Shown one piece after another: positions 1-47,027 of a DNA stretch of 64,000 nt. The stretch covers positions 2,218-66,217 of the forward strand of contig CALXCH010000001.1 of NCBI GenBank assembly GCA_944386735.1, read 5' to 3'. Below the pieces are notes generated by a model. It did not search any database, was not told the origin of the DNA, and saw only the letters and a list, made by a program, of their open reading frames with translations. How positions within the stretch are numbered: the stretch's first letter is position 1; each line of letters begins with the position of its first letter. The stretch comes from an uncultured Clostridia bacterium. GTDB lineage: Bacteria > Bacillota > Clostridia > TANB77 > CAG-508. The position numbers were made by a program, and so were the translations under genes.

Positions 1-702
1 GAAAAAATAAAAACATATAATATGCCATTTTTTAGTTATATAGTATCAGCATCATCACATACAGCATTTACATTAGATGGTTTGCAAGATACAAGTAAAG
101 TAAATATTGATGTAGGAAAATATAAAGGAACATTTTTTGGAAATTACTTAGAAGCAGTCAATTATGCAGACTATGCATTTGGAACATTTATAGAAGAACT
201 AAAGGATGCAGACTTGTATGATAATTCAGTAATTTTAATATATGGAGACCACAATGGAATAGATATGTATAATGCTGAAATGCTAGATTTCTTAGAACAG
301 ATAAATCCAGATTTAAATGATGTAGATATAAAATTAAATTATATAAGAGTAGCATGTGGAATGAAAATACCAGGAATAGAAAATTTAACAATAGAAAAAC
401 CAGTAAATAAATTAGATATAAAACCAACATTTGAATATTTAATAAAAGAAAATGCAGGAGTAAGTCTTGGAACAAATATGTTTGCAAGAAAAGATTTTGT
501 TTGTTTAAATAATGAAAGAATAGTAACTAGTAGATATTATTATGATGAAAAATGGTATAGAAGAATAGATGGAACAGAAGTAAATTTAGAAAATGGAGAA
601 ATACCAGAAGATGAAAAGGAGCTATTAGAAGAATATTATAATGATATGAAAGAGGAATTAGATATATCGACATCAATAAGTATAAATAATTTACTAAAAT
701 AA
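1..702 (+). CDS. LTA synthase / sulfatase-fold family protein, C-terminal part (5' end lies outside the window; the ORF track's Met at 22 is internal)
   Basis: The ORF is open from the window edge. Motifs such as SASSHTAF and LIYGDHNG are typical of the LtaS/sulfatase catalytic domain C-terminus. Confidence 0.55.
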   Translation, partial: EKIKTYNMPFFSYIVSASSHTAFTLDGLQDTSKVNIDVGKYKGTFFGNYLEAVNYADYAFGTFIEELKDADLYDNSVILIYGDHNGIDMYNAEMLDFLEQINPDLNDVDIKLNYIRVACGMKIPGIENLTIEKPVNKLDIKPTFEYLIKENAGVSLGTNMFARKDFVCLNNERIVTSRYYYDEKWYRRIDGTEVNLENGEIPEDEKELLEEYYNDMKEELDISTSISINNLLK

Positions 703-733
703 GCTGTTTTTGGGGACGGGGTCAAAAAACAGC
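703..733. repeat. Family-A hairpin repeat copy 1: GCTGTTTTT-GGGGACGGGGTC-AAAAACAGC
   Basis: Perfect 9-bp inverted repeat around a G-rich loop, starting right after the TAA stop at 700-702. Near-identical copy at 30066-30096 and an inverted variant at 33879-33913. Confidence 0.8.
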
Positions 734-754: not shown

Positions 755-1759
755 ATGGATGAGGAAAGAGTAATAAGTCCAATGCTGGAAAACAAAACAG
801 AAGAAAGATTGGAAAATTCATTAAGACCTAAAATTTTAGATGAATATATTGGACAAGATAAAGTAAAAGAAAATATGAAAATATATATAGAATCAGCTAA
901 AAAAAGAAATGAACCACTAGACCATTGTTTATTATATGGTCCTCCTGGACTTGGAAAAACTACTTTAGCAAATATAATAGCAAACGAAATGGGGTCAAAT
1001 ATAAAAATAACATCAGGGCCAGCAATTGAAAAGCCAGGAGATTTAGCAGCAATACTTACAAATTTATCAGAATTTGATGTTTTATTTATAGATGAGATAC
1101 ATAGACTAAGTAAAAGTGTAGAAGAAATATTATATCCAGCATTAGAAGATTTTACATTAGATATAGTAATAGGAAAAGGACCAAGTAGTAGGTCAATAAG
1201 ATTAGATTTACCCAAATTTACGTTAATAGGGGCAACTACAAAAGCAGGTTCACTTACTACTCCGCTACGCGATAGATTTGGAATAATACATAGATTAGAA
1301 TTATATTCACCAGAAGAATTAGCAACAATAGTAAAAAGGTCAAGTAAGATATTAAATATAGAAATAGATGAGGAAGCAGCAGTAGAAATAGCAAGAAGGT
1401 CAAGAGGAACACCTAGAATTGCAAATAGGTTATTAAAAAGAGTAAGAGACTATGCAATTGTTTTAGGAGATGGGCATATTAGTTTAAAGATAGCAAAACA
1501 TGCATTAAATAAATTAGAAATAGATGAATTAGGATTAGATGATATAGATAGAAAATTGTTAGAAACAATGATTGTACAATATGGTGGAAGAGCAGTAGGA
1601 ATAGAAGCATTAGCTGCAACAGTAGGAGAAGAAATAGACACAATAGAAGATGTATATGAACCTTATTTAATACAAATAGGATTTATTGCAAGAACATTAA
1701 GAGGAAGAAAAGTATTGCCACCGGCATATAAACATTTGGGTTATGAATATTTAGGGTAA
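755..1759 (+). CDS. ruvB: Holliday junction branch migration helicase RuvB
   Basis: Walker [10 protein letters not shown], full-length RuvB-like sequence of 334 aa, RBS AAAGGA upstream. Confidence 0.95.
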
Positions 1760-1814
1760 TTGGAGATGCATACAAAATGTTACAAGGAAAACGTTCCTAG
1801 AAAGGATGATGTAG

Positions 1815-2315
1815 ATGTCAGAATTTTATAATAGAGTAAAAGAAATATGTAGTAGATATAAAAAAGTTGCAATGTTTGTGGATATGGATGGAACAATAGT
1901 AGAATATGTTATGTATCCAGATAAAACTATAACCACTAAAGCAAAAGGGATGTTTGTGAATAATAAACCTATAAAAATAATAATTGATGAATTAAGGGAA
2001 ATAAATGAAATACAAAATTTGAATTTATATATTTTATCTATGGCAAGAAGTTATATAATAGTTGAAGAAAAGAAAGAATGGTTAAAAAAATACATACCTT
2101 TTATAGATGAAAAAAATTGGATTATAATAAATAGAGAAGCAGGAGATTATAATGATGAAAATAGAAGTAGAATAAAAGCAGAGAAGATACAAGAAAAACT
2201 AAAAGAATATGACCATACTATATTTTTAGATGATGACCATAAAGTATTACAAGGAGCAATGAATTTATTAAAAGATAAATGTGATATATTTCACGTATCG
2301 TCAGCGATAATTTAA
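1815..2315 (+). CDS. HAD-superfamily 5'(3')-deoxyribonucleotidase-like protein
   Basis: HAD motif I FVDMDGTI near the N-terminus and a C-terminal LDDD motif. 166 aa with RBS. Confidence 0.45.
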   Translation: MSEFYNRVKEICSRYKKVAMFVDMDGTIVEYVMYPDKTITTKAKGMFVNNKPIKIIIDELREINEIQNLNLYILSMARSYIIVEEKKEWLKKYIPFIDEKNWIIINREAGDYNDENRSRIKAEKIQEKLKEYDHTIFLDDDHKVLQGAMNLLKDKCDIFHVSSAII

Positions 2316-2333
2316 GTACTAAAGGAGAAAAAG

Positions 2334-4043
2334 ATGATTTTAAGTAAAATAAAAGATAATTATAAAACTTTAATTTTTGTAGCGTTTATTAATTTAATAA
2401 TATTTGGAGTATCAAATCTTATATTTGATATAAAATATGAACAAGTGGATGACTTTTTTATATATGGATTATATTCTGGATTAGATGGAACTTATAATAT
2501 ACATGGAATATATATTCACCCTATTATATGTTTTATATTAAGTTTATTTTTTAGAATATTACCAATGATAAACTGGCATACAATGTTTTTACTACTTATG
2601 CAATTTATATGTTTTACAATAATTGGAACTTTAATAATAAGAAAGAATAATAGTAAAACAGCATATTTATTATATGTGTTATTTGCAAGTGTATGTTATA
2701 CTTCACTTTTAGAATTAATACAATACACATCTGTTGCAGCACTTTTAATATTAACAGCATTTTTTGTAATGATGGATTATATAGAAAGAAAAAAACATGG
2801 AAAAAAATATATAATTTGTTATGTAGTGTTATTTATAATAGGAATAATGACAAGGATGCAGTCATTGTTGATAATTGCTCCATTTTTTGCACTATATTTT
2901 ATATTTAATATTATTTTATTAATAAGAAAAAGAGTAGATAAGGAAAAATTAATAAAGATTGTAAAACATTATTTGATTTTTACAAGTTTAACAGTTTTAG
3001 TATATGTTTCAAATATTATAATTTATAATAGTAATGAAACATATAGAAATTATATGGAATATAATGATTTAAGATCAACATTACATGATGTATCATTTAT
3101 AGTATATCCACTAAATAAGGAAATATTTGATGAAATAGGTTGGTCTGAAAATGATTATTATTTATTTTATACATTTAATTATGGCGATGAAAATGTTTAT
3201 AGCAAAGAAAATTTACAGAAGATAATAGATTATAAAAAAAGTAATAATACCCTTTATGATTTTGATTTTAAATTAAAAGATTTTGAAGAAGATTTTATAG
3301 ATCAAATGACGAATACATATCCTTATATTATTATAATGTTTTTTGGAAGTTTTTTAATTGCAATATATACAAATAAAGAAAAAAGAGGCTATATAATAGC
3401 GATATTTTTGGTAACACTTGCAGTAAATTCTATATTTATTATAATAAATAGAAATGTTCACAGAGTAATAATTCCAGAATATATTTTGGGAACAGCAATG
3501 CTTTTATATTTAACGAAATATAAAAGTGAAAATAAAGAAAAAATAGATATAATAAGAGCAATGTCGATATTTATGATAGTAATGACAGTAATATTTGCAG
3601 GAGGAACATATGAATTTAATTATGAATTAGAAGACTATAGTAATTATAAAGATGTAATAAATTATACAAATGAACATAAAGAAAATGTGTACTTATATAC
3701 TGCCCCATCACTTCAATTTAGATATTTAGCATATTCTGTATATGAAATGCCACCCAAAGGAGCACTTTCAAATCTAAGAGTTATGGGTGGATGGGATATA
3801 TTTACACAGAATTATTATGATTTTAAAGCAAGATATAATTTGGATGGAACATTTTTAGATTTATTAAAAGATAACGTATATTTAATAGATGGAGATGTTG
3901 TGTGGTCAGGTATTGAATATAAAAATTATATAGATAATATAGTTTTATTTATAAAAGAACATTATAACAAAGATGTCACATATGAAAAAATAGAAACTTT
4001 TGATAATATTTATATTTATAAATTACATGAAGTAGCAGACTAA
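2334..4043 (+). CDS. Polytopic integral membrane protein, function unknown (possible glycosyl/lipid transferase-like)
   Basis: 569 aa with more than 10 hydrophobic segments and a soluble C-terminal about 200 aa. RBS AAAGGAG. Confidence 0.45.
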   Translation: MILSKIKDNYKTLIFVAFINLIIFGVSNLIFDIKYEQVDDFFIYGLYSGLDGTYNIHGIYIHPIICFILSLFFRILPMINWHTMFLLLMQFICFTIIGTLIIRKNNSKTAYLLYVLFASVCYTSLLELIQYTSVAALLILTAFFVMMDYIERKKHGKKYIICYVVLFIIGIMTRMQSLLIIAPFFALYFIFNIILLIRKRVDKEKLIKIVKHYLIFTSLTVLVYVSNIIIYNSNETYRNYMEYNDLRSTLHDVSFIVYPLNKEIFDEIGWSENDYYLFYTFNYGDENVYSKENLQKIIDYKKSNNTLYDFDFKLKDFEEDFIDQMTNTYPYIIIMFFGSFLIAIYTNKEKRGYIIAIFLVTLAVNSIFIIINRNVHRVIIPEYILGTAMLLYLTKYKSENKEKIDIIRAMSIFMIVMTVIFAGGTYEFNYELEDYSNYKDVINYTNEHKENVYLYTAPSLQFRYLAYSVYEMPPKGALSNLRVMGGWDIFTQNYYDFKARYNLDGTFLDLLKDNVYLIDGDVVWSGIEYKNYIDNIVLFIKEHYNKDVTYEKIETFDNIYIYKLHEVAD

Positions 4044-4112
4044 AAAACTGCTACTTTTGTTGTAACGAATTTAAAGTTTGTACGTCATATATACAAGAAA
4101 GGGGAAAAGGTT

Positions 4113-4589
4113 ATGCAGGATATGGAAAAAATATATGAAGAATATTTTGAAACTGTAAATAAATATTTATTCTGTTTAACTAAGAATTCTGACATTGCAG
4201 AGGAATTGACACAAGAAACGTTTTACAGAGCAGTAAAGAAAATAGGTACCTATAAAGGTGATTGTAAAATCTCTGTATGGTTATGTCAGATTGCTAAAAA
4301 CTTATGGTATGATGAGTGTAGAAAAAATAAAAAAATAGCAAATAACAATTTCGATTTACCTAATTTAGAATCAGAAGAAAGAGTAGAAGAACAAGTTATT
4401 TCAAAAGATGAAAAAATTACCTTATATAAGAAAATGCAAAGTTTAGATGAAAAAACAAGAGAGGTAATATATCTTAGAATAACAGGAGAATTAAGCTTTA
4501 AGGAAATTGGAGATATATTAAATAAGTCAGAGAACTGGGCAAGAGTAACCTTTTATAGAGGAAAACAAAAAATGAAGGAGGGTGATTAA
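4113..4589 (+). CDS. ECF-type RNA polymerase sigma-70 factor
   Basis: Sigma region 2 (WLCQIAKNLWYDECRK) and region 4 (REVIYLRITGELSFKEIGDIL). 158 aa. Confidence 0.85.
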   Translation: MQDMEKIYEEYFETVNKYLFCLTKNSDIAEELTQETFYRAVKKIGTYKGDCKISVWLCQIAKNLWYDECRKNKKIANNNFDLPNLESEERVEEQVISKDEKITLYKKMQSLDEKTREVIYLRITGELSFKEIGDILNKSENWARVTFYRGKQKMKEGD

Positions 4590-4590
4590 A

Positions 4591-5466
4591 ATGAAAGAAA
4601 GAGATTGTAAAATTGTTCAAGATTTATTACCTAACTATATTGAAAATTTAACAAATGAAGAAACAAATAAATATATAGAAGAACATTTAGATACTTGCAA
4701 AGATTGTAAAAAAATCTATGACAATATGAAAAAGGATTTTAATGTAGATAATAAAACTAAAGAAAAAAAGAAAGTTAAATTCTTAAAGAAATATAGGAAT
4801 AAATTAAGAATATTAGAAATTATTATAATAATTATCATAGTAATATTTATTGCAAATACAGGAAGAAAAGCATATATAATTTCAAATTTATCTGATAAAG
4901 CAAAAGAGTATGAAAATTCAAATAATTATCATGAAGTATCATATTCATTACAAGAAGGAATATTTAATAAATCTGAAATTTTTAGTATGGAAGGCAAAAA
5001 GAAATTAGTATATACGACAATTACAGATGAAGAAACTCAAATACTTACAATGAACCTTACTCAAATAGAAAATGAAAAATATGAAGGAAATATTTATTTT
5101 GATAATAGTTTAGGAAAAAATGTTGTTTTAGACCAAGAAGTTGGAGTAATGGTAGGTCCTCAAGATATTTTTAAAACTGAAAATTTAGGACAATTATTAG
5201 TATATTCAATTCCAACTTATGTAACAAGTACGAAATTTGATGGAATAGACAGTTATTATATATCAAACTTTCAAGGAGAAGGTGGAATGTATGTAAACAA
5301 AGAAACGGGACTTCCTATAAGTACTATGTCAAGTGAGATTGAATATGAGGAAGGAATAATGGGAAGGTCACCTACAACAGAATACAAATATGAATTTGGA
5401 ACAGTTACAGAAGAGGATTTTACAGAACCAGATATAAGTGAATATACAATTAAGGAAGGTATATAA
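4591..5466 (+). CDS. Anti-sigma factor, zinc-finger (HxxxCxxC) type with one TM and an extracytoplasmic domain
   Basis: Immediately follows the sigma gene (stop/start overlap region). N-terminal HLDTCKDCKK motif, a central TM segment, and GGAGG RBS before ATG 4591. Confidence 0.6.
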   Translation: MKERDCKIVQDLLPNYIENLTNEETNKYIEEHLDTCKDCKKIYDNMKKDFNVDNKTKEKKKVKFLKKYRNKLRILEIIIIIIIVIFIANTGRKAYIISNLSDKAKEYENSNNYHEVSYSLQEGIFNKSEIFSMEGKKKLVYTTITDEETQILTMNLTQIENEKYEGNIYFDNSLGKNVVLDQEVGVMVGPQDIFKTENLGQLLVYSIPTYVTSTKFDGIDSYYISNFQGEGGMYVNKETGLPISTMSSEIEYEEGIMGRSPTTEYKYEFGTVTEEDFTEPDISEYTIKEGI

Positions 5467-5581
5467 AAATATAAGGAAAGAGTAGAAATATTCTTTCCTT
5501 GTATTTTGGCTAAAAACTGGAAAAAAACTTTAAAATGTGTTATATTAGTATATGTAAATTAAAAGTAAAGGAAGACGAAAA

Positions 5582-6148
5582 ATGAAATTATTATTACATA
5601 CTTGTTGTGCACCTTGTAGTGTGTATTGCATTGATGAATTAAGAAGTGAAAATATAGAGCCAACTGTATATTGGTTTAATCCTAATATACATCCATATAT
5701 GGAATATAAAGCAAGGAGAGATTGCTTAAAAGAATATACTAAAAGTATAAATGTAAATGCTATTTTTGAAGAAAATTATGGACTAGATGATTTTTGTAAA
5801 AATGTTGTTAAATCTTTAGATACAAGATGTCAAGATTATTGTTATCCAGTTCGTCTAGAACAAACTGCAAAATATGCTAAAGAAAATGGTTTTGATACAA
5901 TTTCAACAACTCTTTTAGTTAGTCCATATCAAAAGCATGATATAATTAAAGATTTAGGAGAAGTAATTGCTAAAAAATATGGAATAGAATTTTTATATAG
6001 AGATTTTAGAGTAGGATTTAGAGAAGGACAAGCAAAAGCAAGAGAAATAGGTCTTTATATGCAAAAATATTGTGGTTGTATTTTTTCAGAAGAGGATAGA
6101 TATAGAAAAAAGATTGAAAAAGATAAGCAAAAGATATTAGTAAAATAA
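5582..6148 (+). CDS. queH: Epoxyqueuosine reductase QueH (DUF208)
   Basis: N-terminal HTCCAPCS motif and conserved Cys pattern. 188 aa. Confidence 0.8.
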   Translation: MKLLLHTCCAPCSVYCIDELRSENIEPTVYWFNPNIHPYMEYKARRDCLKEYTKSINVNAIFEENYGLDDFCKNVVKSLDTRCQDYCYPVRLEQTAKYAKENGFDTISTTLLVSPYQKHDIIKDLGEVIAKKYGIEFLYRDFRVGFREGQAKAREIGLYMQKYCGCIFSEEDRYRKKIEKDKQKILVK

Positions 6149-6182
6149 ATTTTACATACTGTTAAAAACAAGTCATACCAGA

Positions 6183-6398
6183 CTAGTATTCCTGGTATCC
6201 ACGTCTAATATAATTAACATGAGAGCAACAAGGACATTTGTAAGAAGATGTTGTTGCAAACATTCCATCATCGGGATTACTTTTTAAATCATCAAATCCA
6301 AGTTCAAGTATTGCTCCACAATATTTACAAGTTACCCGCATAAATCCTGGTTTTCCATCATTAAAAAGTTTTTTCTTTCCTTCTTTAATGACTCGCAT
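6183..6398 (-). CDS. Small zinc-ribbon protein (two CxxC pairs), unknown function
   Basis: CKYCGA...CPCCSH motifs. AGGAGG RBS 7 nt upstream of ATG (rc of 6396-6398); the longer ORF-track start lacks an RBS. Confidence 0.4.
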   Translation of the reverse strand: MRVIKEGKKKLFNDGKPGFMRVTCKYCGAILELGFDDLKSNPDDGMFATTSSYKCPCCSHVNYIRRGYQEY

Positions 6399-6594
6399 GA
6401 TAATCCTCCTTAGACTTATAGTGAACCAATTGGTTCTAATCTTATAGGACATGTATGAGATTTTACTCAATACAGTTATATTATACTATAATGTATTTGA
6501 ACTAGAATAAATAATTATGATATTAATAATATATAAAAGATAATAAATTATCTATTTATATAAAAATGAGAGAAATAAATCCTCTCGAGATTGC

Positions 6595-6777
6595 TTATTT
6601 AACGGAATTGGAGTTCTCTGCACGAACTTCAATTTTTCCTTTTGAAAAAGAAAAATATGTATTATAGCCGATTAAAGTAGTTAAAAACATAAAGAAGCAA
6701 ACTATAAATACAATAAAGCACAACCTAGATACTTTAGTGCCAATTCTTCGTTGTCTTTTGTTTCCAATTCTTTTCAC
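6595..6777 (-). CDS. Small basic membrane protein (60 aa), GTG start
   Basis: AAAGGAAG RBS before GTG and a single hydrophobic helix. Preceded on its strand by a structured leader. Confidence 0.35.
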   Translation of the reverse strand: MKRIGNKRQRRIGTKVSRLCFIVFIVCFFMFLTTLIGYNTYFSFSKGKIEVRAENSNSVK

Positions 6778-6803
6778 TTCCTTTCTGGCAAAATTAAACT
6801 GCT

Positions 6804-6883
6804 AACAGGTGCAGCTTATCAACAGTTGAAGTGGAAAACTGCCTAGCCAATCAGCAGTACAACTGCTGATTGATACACCTGTT
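6804..6883. other. Candidate structured RNA / cis-regulatory element: 8-bp outer stem AACAGGTG/CACCTGTT enclosing a 10-bp hairpin CAATCAGCAG-TACAA-CTGCTGATTG
   Basis: Nested perfect inverted repeats read directly from the sequence. Lies in the leader of the minus-strand small gene and upstream of the dapD promoter. Confidence 0.35.
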
Positions 6884-6993
6884 GTTAAAGTGAGAAATAA
6901 GCGACAAAAAGAATATATCAAGAATTAATTTAAAAGCCAATATTTATTTTATAAGTAAGGAAAATGTTAAAATAGAATATATAAGTTTGAAAA

Positions 6994-7022
6994 TTGACGG
7001 AAAAATATATAAATGATATAAT
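6994..7022 (+). promoter_or_regulatory. Sigma-A-type promoter for the dapD operon: TTGACG-17 nt-TATAAT
   Basis: Near-consensus -35 and -10 with a 17-nt spacer, about 40 nt upstream of the dapD RBS. Confidence 0.6.
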
Positions 7023-7062
7023 GCTTGAAAAGTTAATAAAAAGTTTTTTAGGAGTTGATGGT

Positions 7063-7854
7063 ATGGAAAAATACTTGAAATTATTAGAAAAAGAAGATTT
7101 AACAAGAGAAGAATTTATGCCAGTATGGGAAGAATTTAAAAGTGATTTAAATAAAGGAAATGTAAGAGTAGCAGAAAAAATAGATGGAGAATGGAAAGTA
7201 AATAAATGGGTAAAACAATTTATATTGTTAGGCTTTAAATATGGAGAAGTAATAAAATTTGAAGATGGAACTATAGATAAAGATACAATGGGAGAAAGAA
7301 AAGTAAATTTAGATGAAAAAGTAAGAGTAGTTTCTCCTACAGTATCAATAAGAGATGGTGTGTATATCGGAAAAGGAGTCACTTTTATGCCACCTTGTTA
7401 TACAAATATAGGAGCATATATAGATGAAGGTTCAATGGTAGACTCTTTAGCATTAGTAGGGTCTTGTGCTCAAATAGGAAAAAATGTACATTTAGGTGCA
7501 GGAGTAATAATAGGTGGAGTATTAGAGCCAGTAGGTGCATATCCTGTAATTATAGAAGATAATGTATTTGTTGGAGCAGGTTCACAAATAACAGAAGGAA
7601 CAATAGTAAAAGAAGGGGCTGTAATAGGAGCAGGTGTAACAATTACAGGAAGTACACCAGTTTATGATAATGTAAATGGAAACATAATTACTCCAAATGA
7701 AAATGGTCAAATAGTAATACCAAAAGATGCAGTTGTAATACCAGGAACAAGAGATGTTAAATCTAATATAGAAGGAGTAACATTATCTAAATCAGTTCCA
7801 ATGATTATAAAATATGGAAGTAAGGTAGTTTTAGAAGATTTATTAAGACCATAA
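7063..7854 (+). CDS. dapD: 2,3,4,5-tetrahydropyridine-2,6-dicarboxylate N-acyltransferase (DapD-type hexapeptide transferase)
   Basis: Strong resemblance to E. coli DapD (RVAEKIDGEW, NIGAYIDEGSMVDS, GSCAQIGKNVHLGAGV). AGGAG RBS 8 nt before ATG 7063; the ORF-track start at 6994 overlaps the promoter. Confidence 0.85.
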   Translation: MEKYLKLLEKEDLTREEFMPVWEEFKSDLNKGNVRVAEKIDGEWKVNKWVKQFILLGFKYGEVIKFEDGTIDKDTMGERKVNLDEKVRVVSPTVSIRDGVYIGKGVTFMPPCYTNIGAYIDEGSMVDSLALVGSCAQIGKNVHLGAGVIIGGVLEPVGAYPVIIEDNVFVGAGSQITEGTIVKEGAVIGAGVTITGSTPVYDNVNGNIITPNENGQIVIPKDAVVIPGTRDVKSNIEGVTLSKSVPMIIKYGSKVVLEDLLRP

Positions 7855-7906
7855 TATTTTATCGCATAAGGCTTCTTATGCGATATTTTGAAAGGAAGAG
7901 AAGTAA

Positions 7907-9110
7907 ATGGCAAATGTAAATGAAAATTTTTTGAACTTAAAGAATGATTATTTGTTTTCTACTATAACAGAAAAAAGAAATGAATTTGAGAAAAATAATC
8001 CAGATAAAAAAGTCATAAGTTTAGGAATAGGAGATGTATCATTACCACTTGCACCAGTTGTAATAGAAGCAATGAAAAAGTCAGTTGATGAAATGTCTAA
8101 AAAAGAAACTTTTAGAGGCTATGGAATAGTTCAAGGATATGACTTTTTAATAGATAGAATTTTAGATGTTGAATATAAGAAAAGAGGAGTTTCTTTAGAA
8201 AAAGATGAAGTGTTTATTGCAGCAGGAAGTAAAGGAGATTTAGCAGGAATAGCAGAGTTGTTATCTGAAGATAATATTGTAGCTTTAATGGATCCAGTAT
8301 ATCCAGCATATAGAGATGCAAATATAATGCTTGGAAGAAATGATATAGTTTATTTAAAAGCTACTGAAGAAAATAATTTTACACCTGAACTTCCAAAAGA
8401 ACATGTTGATATAATATACCTTTGTTCTCCAAATAATCCAACTGGAACAGTTTTAACTAGAAAGCAATTAGAGGAATGGATTAAATATGCTAAAGAAAAT
8501 AAAGCAATAATATTTTACGATTCTGTTTATGAAATATTTATAGAAGATGAAGATATACCTCATAGTATCTATGAGATAGAAGGCGCAAAAGAAGTTGCAG
8601 TAGAATTTAGATCTTATTCAAAACTTGCAGGCTTTACAGGTGTTAGATGTTCTTTTGCGGTTGTACCTAAAGAACTAAAAGTATACACAAAAAGTGGAAA
8701 AGAGGTGGATTTAAATAGTTTGTGGAGAAGAAGACAAAGTACTAAATTTGGTGCAGCGTCATATATTACTCAAAGAGCAGCAGAAGCAGTGTATACAGAA
8801 GATGGTCAAAAACAAATAAGAGAAAATATAAAATATTATAAAGAAAATGCAAAATACATAAAAGAAGAATTAGAAAAAGTTGGATTTATTGTATATGGAG
8901 GAGAAAGTTCACCATATATTTGGCTTAAAACACCAAATGCAATGAAATCTTGGGATTTCTTTGATAAATTATTAAATGAAGCAGCAGTAGTCCGGAACAC
9001 CAGGAGTAGGATTTGGAGAATGTGGAGAGGGATTTTTTAGATTAACAGCATTTTCTAGTAAAGAAGATACTAAAGAAGCTGTGGATAGGATAATTAAATT
9101 ATTTAAGTAA
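7907..9110 (+). pseudogene. Class I/II (PLP) aminotransferase of the diaminopimelate pathway (DapC/PatA-like), interrupted by a 1-nt frameshift near 8991
   Basis: Frame A reads ...AAVV then nonsense to 9040. The +1 frame from 8991 reads [39 protein letters not shown] to TAA at 9108-9110, the canonical aminotransferase C-terminus. Confidence 0.7.
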
Positions 9111-29040: not shown

Positions 29041-30066
29041 ATGACATCTATTGAAAATCTAGAAAAAGAATTAAAACAAGAAAAATTGAATAGTTTATAC
29101 CTTTTATATGGTGAAGAACTATTTTTATTAGAAAACAATATAAAAAGAATAAGAAAATTATTTGGTGAAACTGTAAAAGGCATAAACTCTATTTTAATAG
29201 ATGATACAAATGTAAAAGAATTAATCCAAGATATTGAAACACCTGCATTTGGTTATGAGAAAAAACTAATTATTGCAAGAAATACTGGACTTTTTAAAGC
29301 AGAAGGAAAAAGAAAAAATAAAGAACTTAGTGATTTAAAAGATAAAATAAATGATTATTTAAATGAAAATATTGATATAATAAATCAAAGTGTTATATTA
29401 GTATTTGTGGAAGAAGATGCAGATAGTAGATTAAAATTATTTAAAACATTAGATAAACTAGGAACAGTTTGTAAATTCGATTTCCAAAAACCTGTACAAA
29501 TAGAAAAAAGAGTAAAAGCTATTTGTAAAGCTTATGAAGTAAAAATAGATGATAGTACTTTAAAATATTTTATAGAAATTTGTGGAACAAATATGCAAGA
29601 TGTAATAAATGAAATAAGAAAACTTATTGAGTATGCAGGAAAAGGTGGAGTAATTAAAAAAGAAGATGTTGATAGCTTAACAATAAAAAAACTAGAAGCA
29701 GTAATATTTGATTTAACAGATAATTTAGGGCAAAAACAAACAAGAAAAGCATTAGATGTATTAAAGAATTTGATTTATAATAAAGAGCCAATACAAAGAA
29801 TTTTAGTTATGTTATATAATCATTTTAAGAAACTATATTTCTTAAAATTAGCAATTAGATATAATAAAGATATTGTAACTTCATTAAGTTTAAAACCAAA
29901 TCAAACTTTTCTAGTAAACAAATATAAAACACAATCTAAATATTTTACAGAAAAAGAATTAAAAGAAGTTTTGCAAGCATTAAGAGATTTAGATGTAAAT
30001 TATAAGAATGGCCTAATAGACATACAAGTGGGCTTAGAAGCAATTCTTTGTAATTATTGCTCATAG
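29041..30066 (+). CDS. holA: DNA polymerase III subunit delta
   Basis: N-terminal LYLLYGEELFLLE, typical of HolA. 341 aa. Confidence 0.8.
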   Translation: MTSIENLEKELKQEKLNSLYLLYGEELFLLENNIKRIRKLFGETVKGINSILIDDTNVKELIQDIETPAFGYEKKLIIARNTGLFKAEGKRKNKELSDLKDKINDYLNENIDIINQSVILVFVEEDADSRLKLFKTLDKLGTVCKFDFQKPVQIEKRVKAICKAYEVKIDDSTLKYFIEICGTNMQDVINEIRKLIEYAGKGGVIKKEDVDSLTIKKLEAVIFDLTDNLGQKQTRKALDVLKNLIYNKEPIQRILVMLYNHFKKLYFLKLAIRYNKDIVTSLSLKPNQTFLVNKYKTQSKYFTEKELKEVLQALRDLDVNYKNGLIDIQVGLEAILCNYCS

Positions 30067-30096
30067 CTGTTTTTGGGGACGGGGTCAAAAAACAGC
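30066..30096. repeat. Family-A hairpin repeat copy 2 (identical to 703-733), overlapping the holA TAG stop
   Basis: 31/31 nt identical to copy 1. Confidence 0.8.
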
Positions 30097-30152
30097 CATA
30101 AACTAAAAACAAAATAGAAAAATAACTATAAAATGCATAATAAATCACTTAA

Positions 30153-30974
30153 ATGATAAAAATAGTAAAAAGAAATTTTATCATTTGGGTGATTTTTATG
30201 TTTAAAAGAAATAACGAAAAGATAGAAAATAAAAAGTTAAAAAATAAAAAAACAAAAATAACAAACAAAATAAAAGAAAGAACTTTAAGCAAAAAAAGTA
30301 TAAAGGTTAGTTTAGTAATTACATTTATAGTTTTATTATTTTCTACTGTTATTTTTATGTATTCTACAAATAACAGTGAAGTAGAAGCTTTATCTAAATA
30401 TGGTTCTAGGGGAGACGAAGTAAGACAGATACAAACTAAACTTAAAAGATGGGGATATTATAATGGCAATGTAGATGGCATATTTGGAAGTCAGACATTA
30501 GAAGCGGTTAAATATTTCCAAAGAAAAAATGGACTGACAGTAGATGGAATTGCAGGGCCTGCAACTTTAAAAGCTATGGGAATATATAGTTCTAGTTCAT
30601 CTTCTAGTTCGAGTACAAGTAATTCTAGTGATGTAAATTTACTTTCTAGAATTATTTATGGAGAAGCAAGAGGAGAACCATATACAGGACAAGTTGCAGT
30701 AGGAGCAGTTGTTTTAAATAGAGTAAAAAGTAGTTCTTTTCCTAATACAATATCAGGAGTAATATATCAATCAGGTGCTTTTGATGCTGTAAGAGATGGA
30801 CAAATAAATCTATCACCAGATTCTACTGCAAAAAAAGCGGCACAAGATGCTTTAAATGGTTGGGATCCAACATATGGAGCAATATATTATTTTAATCCAG
30901 CAACTGCAACTAATAAATGGATTTGGTCAAGACCAATGACAGTAACTATAGGAAGACATAGATTTTGCAAATAA
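30153..30974 (+). CDS. sleB: Spore cortex-lytic enzyme SleB (PG-binding domain + hydrolase domain); alternative start ATG 30198
   Basis: PG_binding_1 repeats (GSRGDEVRQIQTKLKRWGYY), a Ser-rich linker and an SleB catalytic C-terminus (IIYGEARGEP, YQSGAFD). Confidence 0.8.
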   Translation: MIKIVKRNFIIWVIFMFKRNNEKIENKKLKNKKTKITNKIKERTLSKKSIKVSLVITFIVLLFSTVIFMYSTNNSEVEALSKYGSRGDEVRQIQTKLKRWGYYNGNVDGIFGSQTLEAVKYFQRKNGLTVDGIAGPATLKAMGIYSSSSSSSSSTSNSSDVNLLSRIIYGEARGEPYTGQVAVGAVVLNRVKSSSFPNTISGVIYQSGAFDAVRDGQINLSPDSTAKKAAQDALNGWDPTYGAIYYFNPATATNKWIWSRPMTVTIGRHRFCK

Positions 30975-31228: not shown

Positions 31229-33799
31229 ATGTATTTATTTAATAGGATAACGGTAAATCCACAATTACCAAAAAGAATAGAAAAATTATCAGTGATAGCT
31301 AATAATTTATGGTGGTCTTGGAATACAGAATTCTTAAGACTATTTCAAAGAATGGATAGAGATTTGTGGGAAGTATCAAATAAGAACCCAATCAAGTTTT
31401 TAAAACATGTGTCACAAGAAAAATTAGAGGATGTAGCAAAAGATGTTACATTTTTAAAAGAGTATGACAAAATAGTAGAAGAATTTGAAGGATATATAAA
31501 TAGTAGAAATACATGGTTTAATAAAATGTATCCAGAAGAAAAAGGAGATTTAATAGCATATTTCTCAGCTGAATATGGATTAGACCAAACTATTCCTATT
31601 TATTCAGGAGGACTTGGAATATTATCAGGAGACCATTTAAAATCAGCAAGTGATTTAGGAATTCCCCTTGTTGCTGTAGGATTATTATATAAAAATGGAT
31701 ATTTTAATCAAAAAATAGATGGAAATGGAAATCAACAAACAGAATATAATGATATAGATTTATATGATTTACCAATAAACCCTGTAAAAGATGAAAATGG
31801 TGATGACTTAATAATATTTGTAAAATTTCCAAAAAGAAGATTATATTTAAAAGTATGGAGCATAAATGTAGGAAGAGTAAAACTATATTTATTAGACTCA
31901 GATATTGAAAAAAATAATCCAGAAGATAGAGATGTAACACTAAGGCTTTATGGTGGAGACCAAGAAATGAGAATACGCCAAGAAATAGTTTTAGGACAAG
32001 CGGGAGTAGAATTACTTACAAAATATTTAAAACTAAATCCAACAGTATATCACATGAATGAAGGACATTCTGCATTTTTAACATTAGAACTTATGAAAAA
32101 CATAATAAAAGAAAAAGAAGTATCATTTGAAGTAGCAAAAGATATAACAAGTTCAAAAACAGTATTTACAACACATACACCAGTACCAGCAGGAAATGAT
32201 ATATTTCCGCTAGATTTAGTAGAAAAATATTTCAAAGACTTCTGGCCAAGATTAGGATTAACAAGAGAAGAATTTTTAAGGCTTGGAATGAAACCGGGAA
32301 AAGATTTAGACAATGGCTTTAATATGGGAATATTAGCACTAAAAATTGCGGGAAAGAAAAATGGAGTAAGTAAACTGCATGGAGCAGTATCAAGAGAACT
32401 ATTTGGAGATGTATGGCCAAATATAGCGGCAAATGAAGCTCCAATAGGATATGTAACAAATGGAATACATACTTGTTCATGGCTTGCACCAAGAATGAAA
32501 GAATTATTTAATAAATACCTAATACCATATTGGCAAGATAATATGCATAAAGACCAAATATGGGAAAAAATAAGAAATGTGCCGGATGAAAAAATATGGC
32601 AAATACATAATGATAGAAAAATAAAATTATTAAGATTAGTAAAAGATAATACATATGAAAGATTAAGACGTTCAGGATATAGCTATGAAGATATTAATGA
32701 AATAATATCAAAATTAAACCCAAATGCATTAACAATAGGATTTGCAAGAAGATTTGCAACATATAAAAGAGCAACATTAATATTTAAAGACTTAGAAAGA
32801 ATAACACAAATAATAAACAATAGTGAAAGACCAGTACAAATAATATTTGCAGGAAAAGCACATCCAGCAGATAAAGAAGGACAAGATTTAATAAGGTATA
32901 TTCATCAAGTATCAATGATGCCACAATTTAAAGGAAAAATATTCTTACTAGAAAACTATAATATAGCAATGTCAAGATATTTAGTAAGTGGAGTAGATGT
33001 ATGGTTAAATAACCCAAGAAGACCAATGGAAGCATCAGGAACAAGTGGACAAAAAGCATCAGTAAATGGAGTAATAAACTTTAGTGTACTAGATGGTTGG
33101 TGGGCAGAAGGATATACACAAACCAATGGATGGACAATAGGAAGTAACCAAGAATATGAATCATATGAAGCACAAGATCAAGCGGATAGTCAAAGTTTAT
33201 ATAGAACATTGGAAGAAAAAATAATACCAACATTCTATGATAGGGATAAAAACGGAATGCCAACAAAATGGATACAAATCATGAAAAACTCCATAATAAC
33301 AACAGGAGGAAAATATAGTACATCAAGAATGCTTGTAGACTATACAAAAGATTATTATATGCCACTATGTAAGTTAACAAAAAAATATTACCAAGATATA
33401 GATAATGTAGCAGCATTTAACTCATGGAAAAAGGACTTGTACACAAACTGGAAAGATGTAAAAATAAGACAAACAGAAGAAGACGCAGATAATATAACAA
33501 TAGACGCTGGAAATAAAATAGAAGTAGGTTGTGAAGTAGAACTTCCAAATATAGATGTAAATAATGTAAGTGTAGAAGTTTATTATGGCAAAATATTAGA
33601 AAATGGAATAGTAGAAAACGTAAGTATAACGCCAATGCAATTAACAGAAAAAGATGAAGAAACAAGAAAATATTATTATACAGCAAAAATAGAATTAACA
33701 ACTGGTGGAAATTATGGTTATACATTTAGAGTAATGCCAAAACATGAAATGATATTAGAGCCAGCAAACTTAGACTTAATAAAATGGGTAACAAAATAA
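31229..33799 (+). CDS. glgP: Alpha-glucan (glycogen/maltodextrin) phosphorylase, long GT35 type
   Basis: 856 aa with PLP-binding region (GTSGQKASVNG) and GT35 motifs. Confidence 0.85.
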   Translation: MYLFNRITVNPQLPKRIEKLSVIANNLWWSWNTEFLRLFQRMDRDLWEVSNKNPIKFLKHVSQEKLEDVAKDVTFLKEYDKIVEEFEGYINSRNTWFNKMYPEEKGDLIAYFSAEYGLDQTIPIYSGGLGILSGDHLKSASDLGIPLVAVGLLYKNGYFNQKIDGNGNQQTEYNDIDLYDLPINPVKDENGDDLIIFVKFPKRRLYLKVWSINVGRVKLYLLDSDIEKNNPEDRDVTLRLYGGDQEMRIRQEIVLGQAGVELLTKYLKLNPTVYHMNEGHSAFLTLELMKNIIKEKEVSFEVAKDITSSKTVFTTHTPVPAGNDIFPLDLVEKYFKDFWPRLGLTREEFLRLGMKPGKDLDNGFNMGILALKIAGKKNGVSKLHGAVSRELFGDVWPNIAANEAPIGYVTNGIHTCSWLAPRMKELFNKYLIPYWQDNMHKDQIWEKIRNVPDEKIWQIHNDRKIKLLRLVKDNTYERLRRSGYSYEDINEIISKLNPNALTIGFARRFATYKRATLIFKDLERITQIINNSERPVQIIFAGKAHPADKEGQDLIRYIHQVSMMPQFKGKIFLLENYNIAMSRYLVSGVDVWLNNPRRPMEASGTSGQKASVNGVINFSVLDGWWAEGYTQTNGWTIGSNQEYESYEAQDQADSQSLYRTLEEKIIPTFYDRDKNGMPTKWIQIMKNSIITTGGKYSTSRMLVDYTKDYYMPLCKLTKKYYQDIDNVAAFNSWKKDLYTNWKDVKIRQTEEDADNITIDAGNKIEVGCEVELPNIDVNNVSVEVYYGKILENGIVENVSITPMQLTEKDEETRKYYYTAKIELTTGGNYGYTFRVMPKHEMILEPANLDLIKWVTK

Positions 33800-33834: not shown

Positions 33835-33870
33835 TAAAAAAATACATCTCAAATAAATGAGGTGTATTTT
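33835..33870 (+). terminator. Terminator AAAAAATACATCTCA...TGAGGTGTATTTTT
   Basis: 10-bp stem followed by a T-run after glgP. Confidence 0.7.
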
Positions 33871-33878
33871 TATATTAT

Positions 33879-33913
33879 TCAGCTGTTTTTTGACCCCGTC
33901 ATGAAAAACAGCT
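33879..33913. repeat. Family-A hairpin repeat copy 3 (inverted/variant loop GACCCCGTCATG)
   Basis: CAGCTGTTTTTT...AAAAAACAGCTG stem. The loop is the reverse complement of the GACGGGGTC core. Confidence 0.7.
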
Positions 33914-34024: not shown

Positions 34025-35410
34025 GTGAATAATATCTCTAGTAAATATTTAGCAATATGTCCACTAGATGGAAGATATTCTGAGATTGGAGAAGCGTTAG
34101 CATCATATTTTTCAGAATATGCTTTAGTAAAAAACAGAGTTTGGGTTGAAGTAAATTGGCTTGTATTTCTATTAGAAAATTTAAAAGAAAGTGAAATATT
34201 AAATAAATTTTCAAAAGAGAGATTAACAGAAATATTAGATATTTCTGAAAATTTTTCAGAAAAAGAATTTATGAGAGTAAAAGAAATTGAAAAAGTAACT
34301 AATCATGATGTAAAAGCAATAGAGATTTTTGTAGGAGAAAAGCTTAAAGAAAAAGAAGTAGAAGAGCTTGTAAGTTATGTACATATTGGTTGTACTTCTG
34401 AAGATATTAATAATACTGCATATGCAAACATGATAAAAAATGGACTTAAAAAAGTTTGGATACCAGAAGCTAATAATTTAATAAATATTTTAAGTGACTT
34501 TGCAAAAAAGTATGCAGATATTCCAATGCTAGCACATACTCATGGACAACCGGCAACGCCAACAACAGTTGGAAAAGAATTTGCAATATATGTACATAGA
34601 CTAAAAAATTCTCTAAATAATGTAATAGAAATAAAACCTACAGCAAAGTTTAATGGAGCGACAGGAAATTATTCAGCAATATCAGTTGCATTCCCTGATG
34701 AAAATTGGGAAGAACTTTCTAAAAAATTTGTAGAAGAAAAACTTAAATTAACATTTAATCCACTAACAACTCAAATAGAAGGACACGATTATATGTGCCA
34801 TATATTTGATGGAATAAGACATTTTAATAATGTAATGTTAGATTTAGTACGTGATATGTGGTTATATATTAGTAAAAATTATTTTAAACAAATAGTAATA
34901 AAAAATGAAGTAGGAAGTAGTACAATGCCACATAAGGTAAATCCTATTAAATTTGAAAATAGTGAGGCCAATATAGATATTTCAAATAATATATTAGTAG
35001 GACTATCTAATAAACTTCCAGTTTCTCGTATGCAAAGAGATTTATCAGACTCTTCAAGTCAAAGAAATATTGGTATGGGAGTTGGATATTCACTTCAAGC
35101 AATAAAACAAGCAATTAGTGGATTAAAGAGAGTAGAAGTAAATAAAGAAGAAATTACTAAAGCACTTGAATGTAATTGGGAAGTACTAGCAGAGCCAATC
35201 CAAACTGTGCTTCGTAAATATGGCATTCCTGATGCTTATGATAAACTAAAAGAACTAACTAGAGGAAAGAGAATCTCTAAAGAAGATATACAAGAATTTA
35301 TCAAATCACTTAATATTCTTTCACCTGAAGATAAAGATAATCTTCTTCAGCTAACTCCTGGGAATTATGTTGGTTATGCTAGTAAACTAGCAAAAAAGAT
35401 TGCTGAGTAA
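34025..35410 (+). CDS. purB: Adenylosuccinate lyase
   Basis: Fumarate-lyase signature GSSTMPHKVNP. 461 aa. AGGAGG RBS with GTG start. Confidence 0.85.
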   Translation: MNNISSKYLAICPLDGRYSEIGEALASYFSEYALVKNRVWVEVNWLVFLLENLKESEILNKFSKERLTEILDISENFSEKEFMRVKEIEKVTNHDVKAIEIFVGEKLKEKEVEELVSYVHIGCTSEDINNTAYANMIKNGLKKVWIPEANNLINILSDFAKKYADIPMLAHTHGQPATPTTVGKEFAIYVHRLKNSLNNVIEIKPTAKFNGATGNYSAISVAFPDENWEELSKKFVEEKLKLTFNPLTTQIEGHDYMCHIFDGIRHFNNVMLDLVRDMWLYISKNYFKQIVIKNEVGSSTMPHKVNPIKFENSEANIDISNNILVGLSNKLPVSRMQRDLSDSSSQRNIGMGVGYSLQAIKQAISGLKRVEVNKEEITKALECNWEVLAEPIQTVLRKYGIPDAYDKLKELTRGKRISKEDIQEFIKSLNILSPEDKDNLLQLTPGNYVGYASKLAKKIAE

Positions 35411-42774: not shown

Positions 42775-42849
<75 letters not shown>

Positions 42850-44383: not shown

Positions 44384-45139
44384 ATGGCTACTATTGTTCA
44401 CACTGACGAAGACTTTGCAAAAACTTATGTTTTTCGAACTCAAGATGAGCACGTTTTGTATATTAGCGATTTTAAGGAAGGAGTTGCTACAGTAGAATTA
44501 ACAGATGACCATACACTTGATTCTTTGGCAAGAGTAATTTTCGGCTGTTTTTCAAAAAAATCAAATTTTGCTGAAGCGATTCTTAAAGCTTATCATTGTG
44601 ATGAAAATGTGAGATTTAAGGGATTTGCAATTAATATTAACGGAAAATTGGTAAATATTACTAAGGAAGACTGTGACATTGATGAAATTATCGAATTGAT
44701 AAAGCAAGCTGAGAAGGAAACTCAAGAAGAAACAATGGCAAATTCATTTGGACAGCTTGTGGAATTTTTTACAGGAATTCCAAAAGAAGTAAGTTATGTG
44801 AGAGCAATTGTTAAAATTGAGTTTAAAGATGAAGCATCTGAAAAATCATGGAATGAATGGTTTGAAAGTGCTGAGAGCGAAGAACAAAATGAAATTGTTA
44901 GCTTTGGAGATTTGCTAGCTAGGTATTCACAAAGTGCAATGAAAGATGGATATCCTTTTGAAACTGCTGTAACTAGGTCATATCTGAAACTTTCTGCAAT
45001 GGATGAAAATCTAGATGATGCAATGAAACAATATGCAATTGATAAGCTGATTGAATGTTGGAAATATGGTAAAGAACTGAAGGAATGGAATGATGGTAGA
45101 ACCAAGTCTGACCTGGAAAATCTGATTGATGAAATCTAG
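44384..45139 (+). CDS. Acidic 251-aa protein, uncharacterized family, paralog 1 of 3 in tandem
   Basis: Own promoter TTGAAA-17-TATAAT, RBS, and terminator CCTCCTTTAAAGGAGG. N-terminal VHTDEDF...GVATVE...GCFSKKSNF...AYHCDEN is shared with the paralogs. Confidence 0.6.
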   Translation: MATIVHTDEDFAKTYVFRTQDEHVLYISDFKEGVATVELTDDHTLDSLARVIFGCFSKKSNFAEAILKAYHCDENVRFKGFAININGKLVNITKEDCDIDEIIELIKQAEKETQEETMANSFGQLVEFFTGIPKEVSYVRAIVKIEFKDEASEKSWNEWFESAESEEQNEIVSFGDLLARYSQSAMKDGYPFETAVTRSYLKLSAMDENLDDAMKQYAIDKLIECWKYGKELKEWNDGRTKSDLENLIDEI

Positions 45140-45308: not shown

Positions 45309-46064
45309 ATGATTACATTTGTACATACTGACGAGGAATTTGTGAAGATGTACAAGTTTCGGACACAGAACAATCATGTTGTGCTTGTAAAAGAATTTGA
45401 AAATGGAGTTGCAACAATTGAACCAACATGGGATTACAAAAATTTAGATGAGTTTATTGAAGTTATTTCAGGTTGCCTTAATGGAAAATCTAATTTTAAA
45501 AAAGAGCTTATGAAAGCCTATGGCCATGATGAAAATTCTGAACTTAAGGGAATTAATATTATCATATTAGGTATCAATGTGTTTATTTCGCCTGAAAAGA
45601 AGAACAAAGATGAAATTCAAGCTATTATTGATTCAAGTATGATAAAACATTTTGAAAGAAACTTACGAGAAGTAATCGATAGTTCATTCCATTGTCGGTA
45701 TTGTGATTATATAACTAATATTGTCTATAGTACGGAAATTGAATTTGTAAGTAAAGAGGCAGAAAGAAAGTGGAGAAAGAAGACTGATAAGTTAAGAGAA
45801 ACAGAAACAGGATTCTTTATAGTAGACTATGCAGACAACTTAGCTAAATATATTCAGTATCTTGTTGAGGATATGGATAAAAAGTTTCCTACAGTAATAG
45901 ATGAAGCAATGGAAGACATTGATTCATTGACGATGGCAGAAGGTGACACTATACTAGAAGCAATCTATTTGCTTGTTGATACTTGGAAATATGGAGATGA
46001 ACTTATAAAATGGAATAGAAAAGTAATCGATTTTCAAATGCAAAGTATCATAGATGACCTCTAA
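45309..46064 (+). CDS. Acidic 251-aa protein, paralog 2 of 3
   Basis: VHTDEEF...GVATIE...GCLNGKSNF...AYGHDEN, C-terminal WKYGDELIKWN. Own promoter and terminator CCTCTAGAAATAGAGG. Confidence 0.6.
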   Translation: MITFVHTDEEFVKMYKFRTQNNHVVLVKEFENGVATIEPTWDYKNLDEFIEVISGCLNGKSNFKKELMKAYGHDENSELKGINIIILGINVFISPEKKNKDEIQAIIDSSMIKHFERNLREVIDSSFHCRYCDYITNIVYSTEIEFVSKEAERKWRKKTDKLRETETGFFIVDYADNLAKYIQYLVEDMDKKFPTVIDEAMEDIDSLTMAEGDTILEAIYLLVDTWKYGDELIKWNRKVIDFQMQSIIDDL

Positions 46065-46259
46065 CTTTGCTAACTAATAACAAATGGTTAAATAACCATT
46101 AAGCTAAAAAGAAAAAATTTCTTTTCCTCTAGAAATAGAGGTTTCTTTTTTTATTTTTTATTTTTGACAAAAATTAAGTATTAATTGACTTTTATGTAAA
46201 TGGAATATATAATAACAATATGTAATTGTAAAATCATTTTACTTAGAGAAAGGAATATC

Positions 46260-47027
46260 ATGAAAACCATCATCAAAAAAGTAAATAAAATTTTTTCTTT
46301 TAAAGACGAGAAAGGATATGAAGTCCTTGTAGATGGATTTAAAGATGGATTTGCAACAATCCGGATTCCAATTACTGTTACTAGATATGAGGATAAAATC
46401 TCTGCTTGCATAGTAGACGGAAATAATCTTATTAGCTTTTTATCAGGCTGTTTTGGCAAAGAGTCTAATTTCGTAAAAATGCTGTTTGAAACATATGAAT
46501 GTGATTCAACTGCTGAATTTCTTGGATTTAAGTTAAAGGCAGGAGATATGTCATGCACAGTAACTAGGGAAAATTCAGCTTTTTACAGCATTAAAGAAAT
46601 CATAGAAAATTTCCTTGGCATATATGCTGAAGCAGAAGCAGAAAAAATTAACAAGCGAACAGATGAGTATAATAAAGAAAGGGAAGATTTGGATAATCTT
46701 CTCGATAGTCTAGATATAGCTTTTAAGAGTGATCAAGCAGAAGATAAATATATAGAAGAAGCTGAAAGGTTAGATGAAAACTTCTTGGGATATGGACAAG
46801 ATTTTGTTGCACATGTTCAGTACCTTGTGGAACAAGAAGGCTACAATATTTCTGATGCTGTTAATGAGACCTATAGAAGGTTTGATTCAATCAGTTTCAA
46901 TATTGAAGAAGGATTAGCATCAATACAATTCATTTGTAGGTTCTGCCTCTATGGAGATGAGATTTATGAAAGTTATTTTAATATTTGGATGAAGATGTAT
47001 AACGATGAGCTAAATAACTATCTCTAA
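46260..47027 (+). CDS. Acidic 255-aa protein, paralog 3 of 3 (more diverged)
   Basis: GFATIRIP...SGCFGKESNF...TYECDSTAEFLGF, C-terminal LYGDEIYESYFNIW. Promoter TTGACT-17-TATAAT. Terminator CCCTCTAGAAATAGAGGG. Confidence 0.55.
   Translation: MKTIIKKVNKIFSFKDEKGYEVLVDGFKDGFATIRIPITVTRYEDKISACIVDGNNLISFLSGCFGKESNFVKMLFETYECDSTAEFLGFKLKAGDMSCTVTRENSAFYSIKEIIENFLGIYAEAEAEKINKRTDEYNKEREDLDNLLDSLDIAFKSDQAEDKYIEEAERLDENFLGYGQDFVAHVQYLVEQEGYNISDAVNETYRRFDSISFNIEEGLASIQFICRFCLYGDEIYESYFNIWMKMYNDELNNYL

Follow-up and report, generated by a model that had tools for sequence, protein, structure and literature searches.

The short hairpins with G-rich loops in the DNA analysed here very probably belong to a REP/REPIN family of uncultured, low-GC gut Clostridia, which would be copied or moved by a cognate RAYT whose gene we saw in relatives. 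The window (the whole stretch of 64,000 nucleotides) contains three copies, all singletons, and no doublets. In related genomes, copies of the repeat flank a gene for a Y1 HUH protein, fill gene junctions that are empty in other relatives, and carry a loop motif that recurs around distant homologues of that protein. A REP-like element had been among the candidate roles listed in an earlier note, made from the letters of the window; it is this candidate that the RAYT gene of the relatives bears out.

Hairpin copies in the window

The three copies, and one neighbouring hairpin of another kind, are as follows.

702 to 733, plus strand (G-loop strand): REP copy 1, A-GCTGTTTTT-GGGGACGGGGTCA-AAAAACAGC, between the TAA of an LtaS-type gene (700-702) and the start of ruvB (755).
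30065 to 30096, plus strand: REP copy 2, same sequence as copy 1; the stem opens with the G of the TAG (30064-30066) that ends holA.
33878 to 33916, minus strand (G-loop strand): REP copy 3, a longer palindrome with a diverged loop, CATGACGGGGTC, and a stem lengthened to 13 bp plus an inner 4 bp.
33835 to 33874, plus strand: terminator-like hairpin with a T-run, outside the repeat family, after a glycogen-phosphorylase-type gene (31229..33799).

Copies 1 and 2 are identical at 31 of 31 nucleotides (703-733 and 30066-30096), as the earlier note had it, and the identity extends to 32 of 32 when 702-733 is compared with 30065-30096. Copy 3 had been described there as the same stem with an inverted loop. 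It is indeed a related copy, but its core (33882-33912) fits the pattern on the minus strand, differing at 3 positions (CAT in the loop where the others have GGG), and therefore the whole element, not the loop, is reverse-complemented. The hairpin folds into the 9-bp stem that had been given, closed by a loop of 13 nt and not of 12, since 9 + 12 + 9 makes 30 instead of 31. Compared with shuffles, its folding energy is -7.3 kcal/mol as DNA (z -4.8) and -11.1 kcal/mol as RNA (z -4.0), and the hairpins in general fold stably as DNA or RNA (z -4 to -8). In one hundred dinucleotide shuffles neither the full pattern nor the stem-gap-stem pattern occurred. The low GC content ascribed to the surroundings was also found (25-30% for the window).

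The first two copies abut or overlap the stop codons of the upstream genes, as had been noted, and the assignment of these genes as LtaS-like and holA agrees with their Pfam matches (LtaS_N/Sulfatase and DNA pol III delta). In the first case the ORF 22..702 ends with TAA at 700-702, the stem begins at 703, and 21 nt separate the end of the copy from ruvB. In the second, the ORF 29041..30066 ends with a TAG whose G doubles as the first base of the stem. Copy 3 lies away from stop codons, 82 nt past the stop at 33799, just beyond the terminator-like hairpin, and 110 nt upstream of ORF 34025 (34025..35410, adenylosuccinate-lyase-type by Pfam). Like Rho-independent terminators, the copies are stem-loops just downstream of genes; unlike them, they have an A/T-rich stem and a 13-nt loop, none of the three is followed by a T-run, and copy 1 sits in an apparent operon junction. 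A terminator scan of positions 1-2000 gave no terminator-like site. The view that these are not ordinary terminators holds. At the gathering threshold no Rfam family matched the hairpin sites, the window giving one tmRNA and two tRNAs only.

The species of the window was found in metagenomes of the BRZ_* (BRZ_MC, BRZ_LG) and ONAT22-1 samples, and each of the three copies is fixed there (copy 1 in 8 contigs, copy 2 in 5). It is distinct from the repeat-bearing MAGs discussed below but related to them, with 72-77% DNA identity in shared genes. Neither the RAYT gene nor the syntenic PRK/U32 locus of these relatives was found in the window, and a comparison of sample identifiers between the RAYT clusters and the samples holding the window species gave no overlap. 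The three copies would be singletons left by mobilisation events, two of them recent or maintained and one decaying.

The repeat family in related genomes

A motif search in relatives had been proposed in the earlier note. We ran it as an exact-pattern scan (GTTTTTNNNGACGGGGTCAAAAAAC) of genome contigs, with one genome per species, which gave more than 102 loci among the matches listed. All matches listed lie in related uncultured Clostridia/Clostridium MAGs from animal-gut samples, one of them labelled Bacilli; the loci are spread over about a dozen and a half MAGs, many of which have several. The retrieved loci hold about 74 extra copies per Mb, a density that applies to a biased sample. Scans of viral contigs, plasmids and phages returned 0 copies, so the hairpin is not a fragment of a plasmid or phage element known in these collections.

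The consensus reads nnTGTTTTT(T)GGGACGGGGTCAAAAAACAnn; the conservation of its core in this sample is by construction, as the search pattern set the core. The unit is a hairpin of about 31-35 nt with an A/T-rich stem (xGxTGTTTTT/AAAAACAxCx) and a loop of 11-13 nt that includes GGGAC(G/A)G. Just outside the fixed core, stem pair -1 covaries (A-T 55, C-G 52, G-C 18) and its variants are genome-specific; on the G-strand this pair is G.T in 20 cases and A.C in 7. The flank profiles are A/T-rich and otherwise featureless, with no target-site motif or duplication, no conserved tag or tail, and no classical 5' GTAG/GTGG tetranucleotide at the foot of the hairpin.

Some hairpins with altered loops adjoin canonical copies or a 47%-identical RAYT. 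They occur at L016:795-829, L012:~2570 and L104:2293-2319 (L numbers denote retrieved loci), with the loops AGCCCCGTCCCC, TGCCCC... and GGGGCCGGAGC, which suggests sub-families within genomes.

Doublets and orthologous junctions

Close pairs of copies have an almost uniform geometry: 32 of 33 are '+ then -', with converging G-strands. The core-to-core spacers of these doublets are AT-rich and measure 24-57 nt, with a peak at 44-57 nt, and the inverted doublet as a whole is about 105-115 bp long. A conserved spacer, as a MITE-like core would provide, was sought in the doublets and not seen. Singletons are the majority, numbering 85 against 61 members of doublets.

The junction behind the sleB-type gene occurs in several states. 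It is empty in L056 and L031, where only about 14-30 nt lie between the stop codon and the next start. In L066 and L080 it holds a REP(+), a spacer of 42-45 nt and a REP(-), placed exactly between the TAA and the Shine-Dalgarno sequence. In L039 it holds a degenerate REP(+), a different spacer and a REP(-). The sleB-type gene of the window (30153..30974) has no element after its stop codon. Further pairs of empty and filled junctions are L007 and L033 (differing by a whole doublet), L087 and L025, L081 and L007, and L035:2426 and L042. Orthologous junctions that are empty in one genome and filled in another imply that the element was gained or lost there, and the doublet with its spacer behaves as a unit. 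The earlier note had named fragments of a known IS or MITE as an outcome that would refute it; in effect this outcome has come about, the hairpin being itself the mobile or mobilised unit.

A near-identical terminator hairpin, AAATACATCTCAAA(TAAA)TGAGGTGTATTT, lies beside a REP at four places (window 33842-33867, L097:326-351, L023:3545-3567 and L090:5084-5105), with a REP on the left at some of them, on the right at others, or on either side of the hairpin. These may be one orthologous site at which each REP was gained or lost independently. The idea of a repeated terminator module tied to the REP was dropped, there being only these 4 occurrences, which are probably orthologous.

Placement at gene boundaries

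Placement was assessed for 160 copies from 102 loci and the window, using crude ORF-based gene calls. Outside called ORFs lie 146 of the 160, and 8 of the 14 exceptions are in the last codons of an ORF, to which they supply the stop codon. In 53 of the 146 extragenic copies (36%) the 5' side of the G-strand is at most 12 nt from a gene end, against 4% expected for uniform, orientation-blind insertion into intergenic DNA; the 3' side is that close in 10 of 146. The enrichment at gene 3' ends, on which the earlier note had wanted its proposal checked, is thus present. Its stronger statement, that the hairpins are placed exactly at stop codons, is true of two of the three window copies and statistically of the relatives, but the rule is broader, as it includes the Shine-Dalgarno side: where the 5' side faces a gene start, the foot of the hairpin is 2-5 nt from the Shine-Dalgarno sequence. 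The orientation bias follows the direction of the gene and not the replication strand (11 vs 4 for lagging-strand genes), and a replication-strand polarity as in IS200/IS605 was rejected on this ground.

Part of the boundary pattern is geometric: a '+ then -' doublet presents a 5' side at either outer edge, and doublets fill tiny operon junctions. Among the 24 doublets whose two neighbouring genes were called, 12 sit flush with both genes and 10 with just one. Gaps of at most 40 nt account for only 3.6% of intergenic nucleotides, and the median gap is 85 nt. The boundary preference that is left over could come from selection, as nearly all other positions in gaps with a median of 85 nt would strike a promoter or a terminator; it could also come from a targeting step. 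Since the nine-fold enrichment at boundaries and the 53:10 orientation bias exceed what is expected of a purely selfish element inserting at random, targeting or a function for the host may be involved.

These figures are also the main argument for a different reading, in which the hairpin would above all serve the host at the RNA level (as a stem-loop in the 3'-UTR or between cistrons that stabilises the upstream mRNA, marks a processing site or modulates translation termination) and its spread would be secondary. The flush placement at gene boundaries agrees with such a role, as do the sense orientation of the G-loop after stop codons, the dependence of the bias on the gene instead of the replication strand, and the stable RNA fold. 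In E. coli the mRNA upstream of a REP is stabilised by it, and translation is lowered by REPs that lie no more than about 15 nt from a stop codon, which counts for this reading too. The excess of G.T over A.C at the covarying pair also points this way, but it is mild and fits equally well with the G-strand being the folding DNA strand. We nevertheless consider a primary RNA role unlikely. The neighbouring genes are functionally unrelated and orthologous junctions are often empty; the same repeat occurs in the opposite sense before Shine-Dalgarno sequences, inside the 3' ends of ORFs and inside one large ORF; the '+ then -' geometry of doublets yields an orientation bias without selection on RNA; the sites belong to no Rfam family; and the conserved loop follows the RAYT family across lineages whose stems differ (see below). 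For a REP/REPIN element, as preferred here, an effect at the RNA level remains plausible. When transcribed, a hairpin flush with a stop codon may keep 3' exonucleases away from the upstream mRNA or obstruct the ribosome as it terminates, and such protection or interference would be a side effect or an exaptation and not the reason for the existence of the repeat.

The eight copies at ORF ends (L053:3321, L083:6436, L089:6359, L090:3161, L094:2104, L007:6556, and one each in L051 and L079) have the stop codon 5-18 nt past the core, so that the element provides the last 12-14 or so codons and the stop instead of sitting past the stop. Two further copies of opposite orientation, L041:3257 and L041:4841, lie inside a single ORF that exceeds 6.5 kb and continues past the end of the locus (1470..8000); they may represent in-frame intragenic REP insertion in a very large protein.

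The RAYT gene

In L035, L042, L061 and L100 an ORF of 246-259 aa lies between copies of the repeat. Its product measures 246-273 aa over nine lineages, and 8 of the 9 RAYT lineages inspected have the (+)...(-) flanking arrangement. The repeat-flanked ORFs match Pfam Y1_Tnp with 53 bits (cut-off 23) and the NCBIfam model REP_Tyr_transpos (REP-associated tyrosine transposase) with 75.7 bits, just under its curated cut-off of 80, while on the IS200 model, where 55 bits are required, they reach 22. The motifs HxH and Y-I-H-x-N-P are invariant. A single-sequence phmmer search of the PDB found no match; a five-sequence profile alone reached E. coli TnpA_REP (4er8) as best match, with E 7e-6 against 0.06 for IS200-type transposases. 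With its HUH motif and catalytic Tyr, and being nearer to TnpA_REP than to IS200 transposases, the Y1 HUH protein is by sequence a RAYT. A database search returned 729 relatives at E <= 1e-20, all of which carry PF01797 and none of which is named.

Six clusters of the protein, with 68-100% identity and from many samples, share one gene context: PRK (uridine-kinase-type), RNHCP and RAYT, followed by a U32 peptidase on the opposite strand. In these six a (+) copy lies upstream of the RAYT gene and a (-) copy starts 4 nt past its stop codon. L061 and L100 form a second synteny group. The loops around the RAYT gene include the species-specific variants GGGACGGGGTC, GGGACGGAGCA and GGGACGGAGGT, and no TnpB gene was found next to RAYT. 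The single context, the conserved synteny and the inverted flanking repeats are hallmarks of RAYTs and set the gene apart from insertion sequences (PMC5581495).

These properties weigh against the proposal that the hairpin is a MITE or PATE, derived by deletion from an active insertion sequence of the IS200/IS605 type, instead of a REP that a domesticated RAYT serves. The associated protein does fall in Pfam Y1_Tnp (IS200-like family); the hairpins resemble the subterminal hairpins of IS200/IS605 elements and would likewise be the single-stranded substrate of a Y1 HUH enzyme; target-site duplications are absent in both; and polymorphism for presence and absence is seen. We hold this origin to be very improbable all the same, given the contrast between the RAYT and IS200 model scores, a chromosomal context that stays the same over the 68-100% range of identity as it would not for an insertion sequence, flanking hairpins that are one sequence in inverted orientation instead of distinct left and right ends, no adjoining tnpB, and no copies on plasmids, phages or viral contigs. 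Membership of the IS200/IS605 or PATE groups was rejected on the same model scores, syntenic context and identical inverted ends. That the hairpin is a binding or recombination site of some other DNA-binding protein (repeats of an invertible promoter switch, or a nucleoid-protein site) is suggested by identical inverted repeats that bracket short AT-rich segments near gene starts, superficially like invertons with a common inverted repeat, but is hardly credible with spacers judged too short for recombinase-mediated inversion, a majority of singletons, an associated Y1 HUH gene but no associated recombinase, and empty junctions that lack the spacer altogether.

A second, divergent RAYT-like gene (L011:26-889) encodes 287 aa that are 32-35% identical to the others and, in one MAG, adjoins a GAPDH gene. 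Its short upstream flank shows no sign of the known hairpin, and the gene may serve a different repeat family.

The loop motif around distant homologues

For a wider comparison we used 57 distant metagenome homologues of the RAYT (29-49% identity) with both flanks present. The motif GGGAC[AG]G was found on the sense strand within 150 nt upstream in 34 of the 57, its reverse complement downstream in 28 and both together in 25; the reversed arrangement gave 2, 1 and 1 of 57. Every case listed has the motif in a hairpin loop, and the stem differs between lineages. The loop motif GGGGAC(G/A)G is thus the one feature that hairpins around distant RAYT homologues have in common, and it points to a solution of the recognition problem other than the classical GTAG foot. 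We infer that the G-rich loop acts as the recognition determinant of this RAYT branch, in the role that the 5' GTAG has in classical REPs (PMC3479197, PMC8266576). Among the papers searched, none had GGGGACGG or GGGGACAG along with a mention of RAYT or TnpA_REP.

Comparison with known systems

The closest parallels are the REPIN-RAYT systems of Pseudomonas and Enterobacteria (PMC3116915, PMC5581495, bioRxiv 10.1101/2021.07.10.451892). Published REPINs are about 100 bp long and consist of two inverted REPs with a highly variable spacer, and their RAYT is single-copy and vertically inherited (bioRxiv 10.1101/2021.07.10.451892). Shared with the present family are a short REP that is palindromic, inverted doublets with variable spacers that measure about 100 bp, an extragenic location, probably a high copy number per genome, and a syntenic, apparently single-copy and vertically inherited RAYT flanked by the repeat. 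Different are the host (an uncultured low-GC Clostridia lineage), the A/T-rich stem, a conserved block that is the 11-13 nt loop and not a GC-rich stem, and a RAYT some 255 aa long that bears a C-terminal extension of roughly 110 aa. In the survey of Bertels 2017 (PMC5581495), abundant RAYT-flanking 16-mers were found only for Groups 2 and 3, and Clostridia were noted only under Group 1, which has low-abundance flanking repeats.

The E. coli REP/BIME elements with their TnpA_REP, the 'REPtron' (Ton-Hoang 2012, PMC3333891; Messing 2012, PMC3479197; Corneloup 2021, PMC8266576), likewise combine an HUH/Y1 protein, of which 4er8 is the best solved relative of ours, with hairpins that flank its gene; in both systems REPs alternate in orientation and some copies adjoin stop codons. 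Unlike the E. coli repeats, ours have neither the 5' GTAG guide tetranucleotide nor a bulged imperfect palindrome and carry the motif GGGAC(G/A)G in the loop, and protein identity to TnpA_REP is too low for single-sequence phmmer. The CGTC-tagged REPs (Di Nocera 2013, PMC3733652) are similar in having stems of 8-9 bp that open with A/T pairs and a predominance of head-to-head dimers, and CGTC does occur on the C-strand of our repeat. In those elements, however, CGTC forms an unpaired tag at the terminus, the loop has 4-5 nt, the tail is CCA-like, no transposase is associated and no Firmicutes are among the hosts given (PMC3733652). Our repeat has CGTC inside a loop of 11-13 nt, no conserved tail and an associated RAYT, and it was not assigned to that group.

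Mechanism and significance

By analogy with E. coli, the RAYT would bind the folded, single-stranded G-strand hairpin through its loop motif and then nick and rejoin the DNA, as described for TnpA_REP, so that the element is copied or moved. To our knowledge, transposition by a RAYT in vivo is not known for any REP.

The kind of element is known, and its host group and architecture (A/T stem, loop tag, long RAYT) lie outside two published surveys (PMC3733652, PMC5581495). Work on REP/REPIN populations and the RAYTs that go with them has dealt almost wholly with Proteobacteria. Tentatively, the family might stand for an undescribed 'loop-tagged' REPIN-RAYT branch, marked by its GGGGAC(G/A)G loop, by stems that covary freely and by a long RAYT (about 255 aa), that is widespread in anaerobic Firmicutes and other metagenomic lineages. 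In the Clostridia studied here it would land at gene boundaries, just 3' of stop codons and just 5' of Shine-Dalgarno sequences, as a result of targeting or host exaptation and not of passive selection. If so, it would be the first Gram-positive REPIN population and a system for testing the choice of REPIN sites and their effect on operon expression. The strong placement at stop codons and Shine-Dalgarno sequences in any case suits the question whether REPINs target gene boundaries and alter the expression of flanking cistrons.

The repeats matter in practice as well, as they break metagenome assemblies and annotators may take the hairpins for terminators. In one MAG contig (L099:~6170-6200) an Illumina adapter, AGATCGGAAGAGCGTCGTGTAGGGAAAGAGTG, follows a REP copy after 11 nt, which is an artefact of assembly. 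This and the large number of RAYT contigs only about 1 kb long suggest that assemblies break at the repeats.

Other features of the window

About 50 nt downstream of REP copy 2, and dissimilar to it, lies an inverted repeat (30142-30195) with 20-nt arms that are 90% complementary and a 14-nt loop. It overlaps the called start of the sleB-type ORF 30153..30974, whose true start may be further downstream than called. Three related, terminator-like repeats of 67 nt (AAAGAAACCTCT...AGAGG...TTTTT) at 45173-45239, 46104-46170 and 47057-47123 follow one each of three tandem paralogous genes (44384..45139, 45309..46064 and 46200..47027); they probably stem from tandem gene duplication and are unrelated to the REP family. 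The tmRNA gene lies at 43824-44179 and encodes the tag peptide ADNEELALAA, and the two tRNA genes are tRNA-Gly(TCC) at 42776-42849 and tRNA-Thr(CGT) at 50297-50372.
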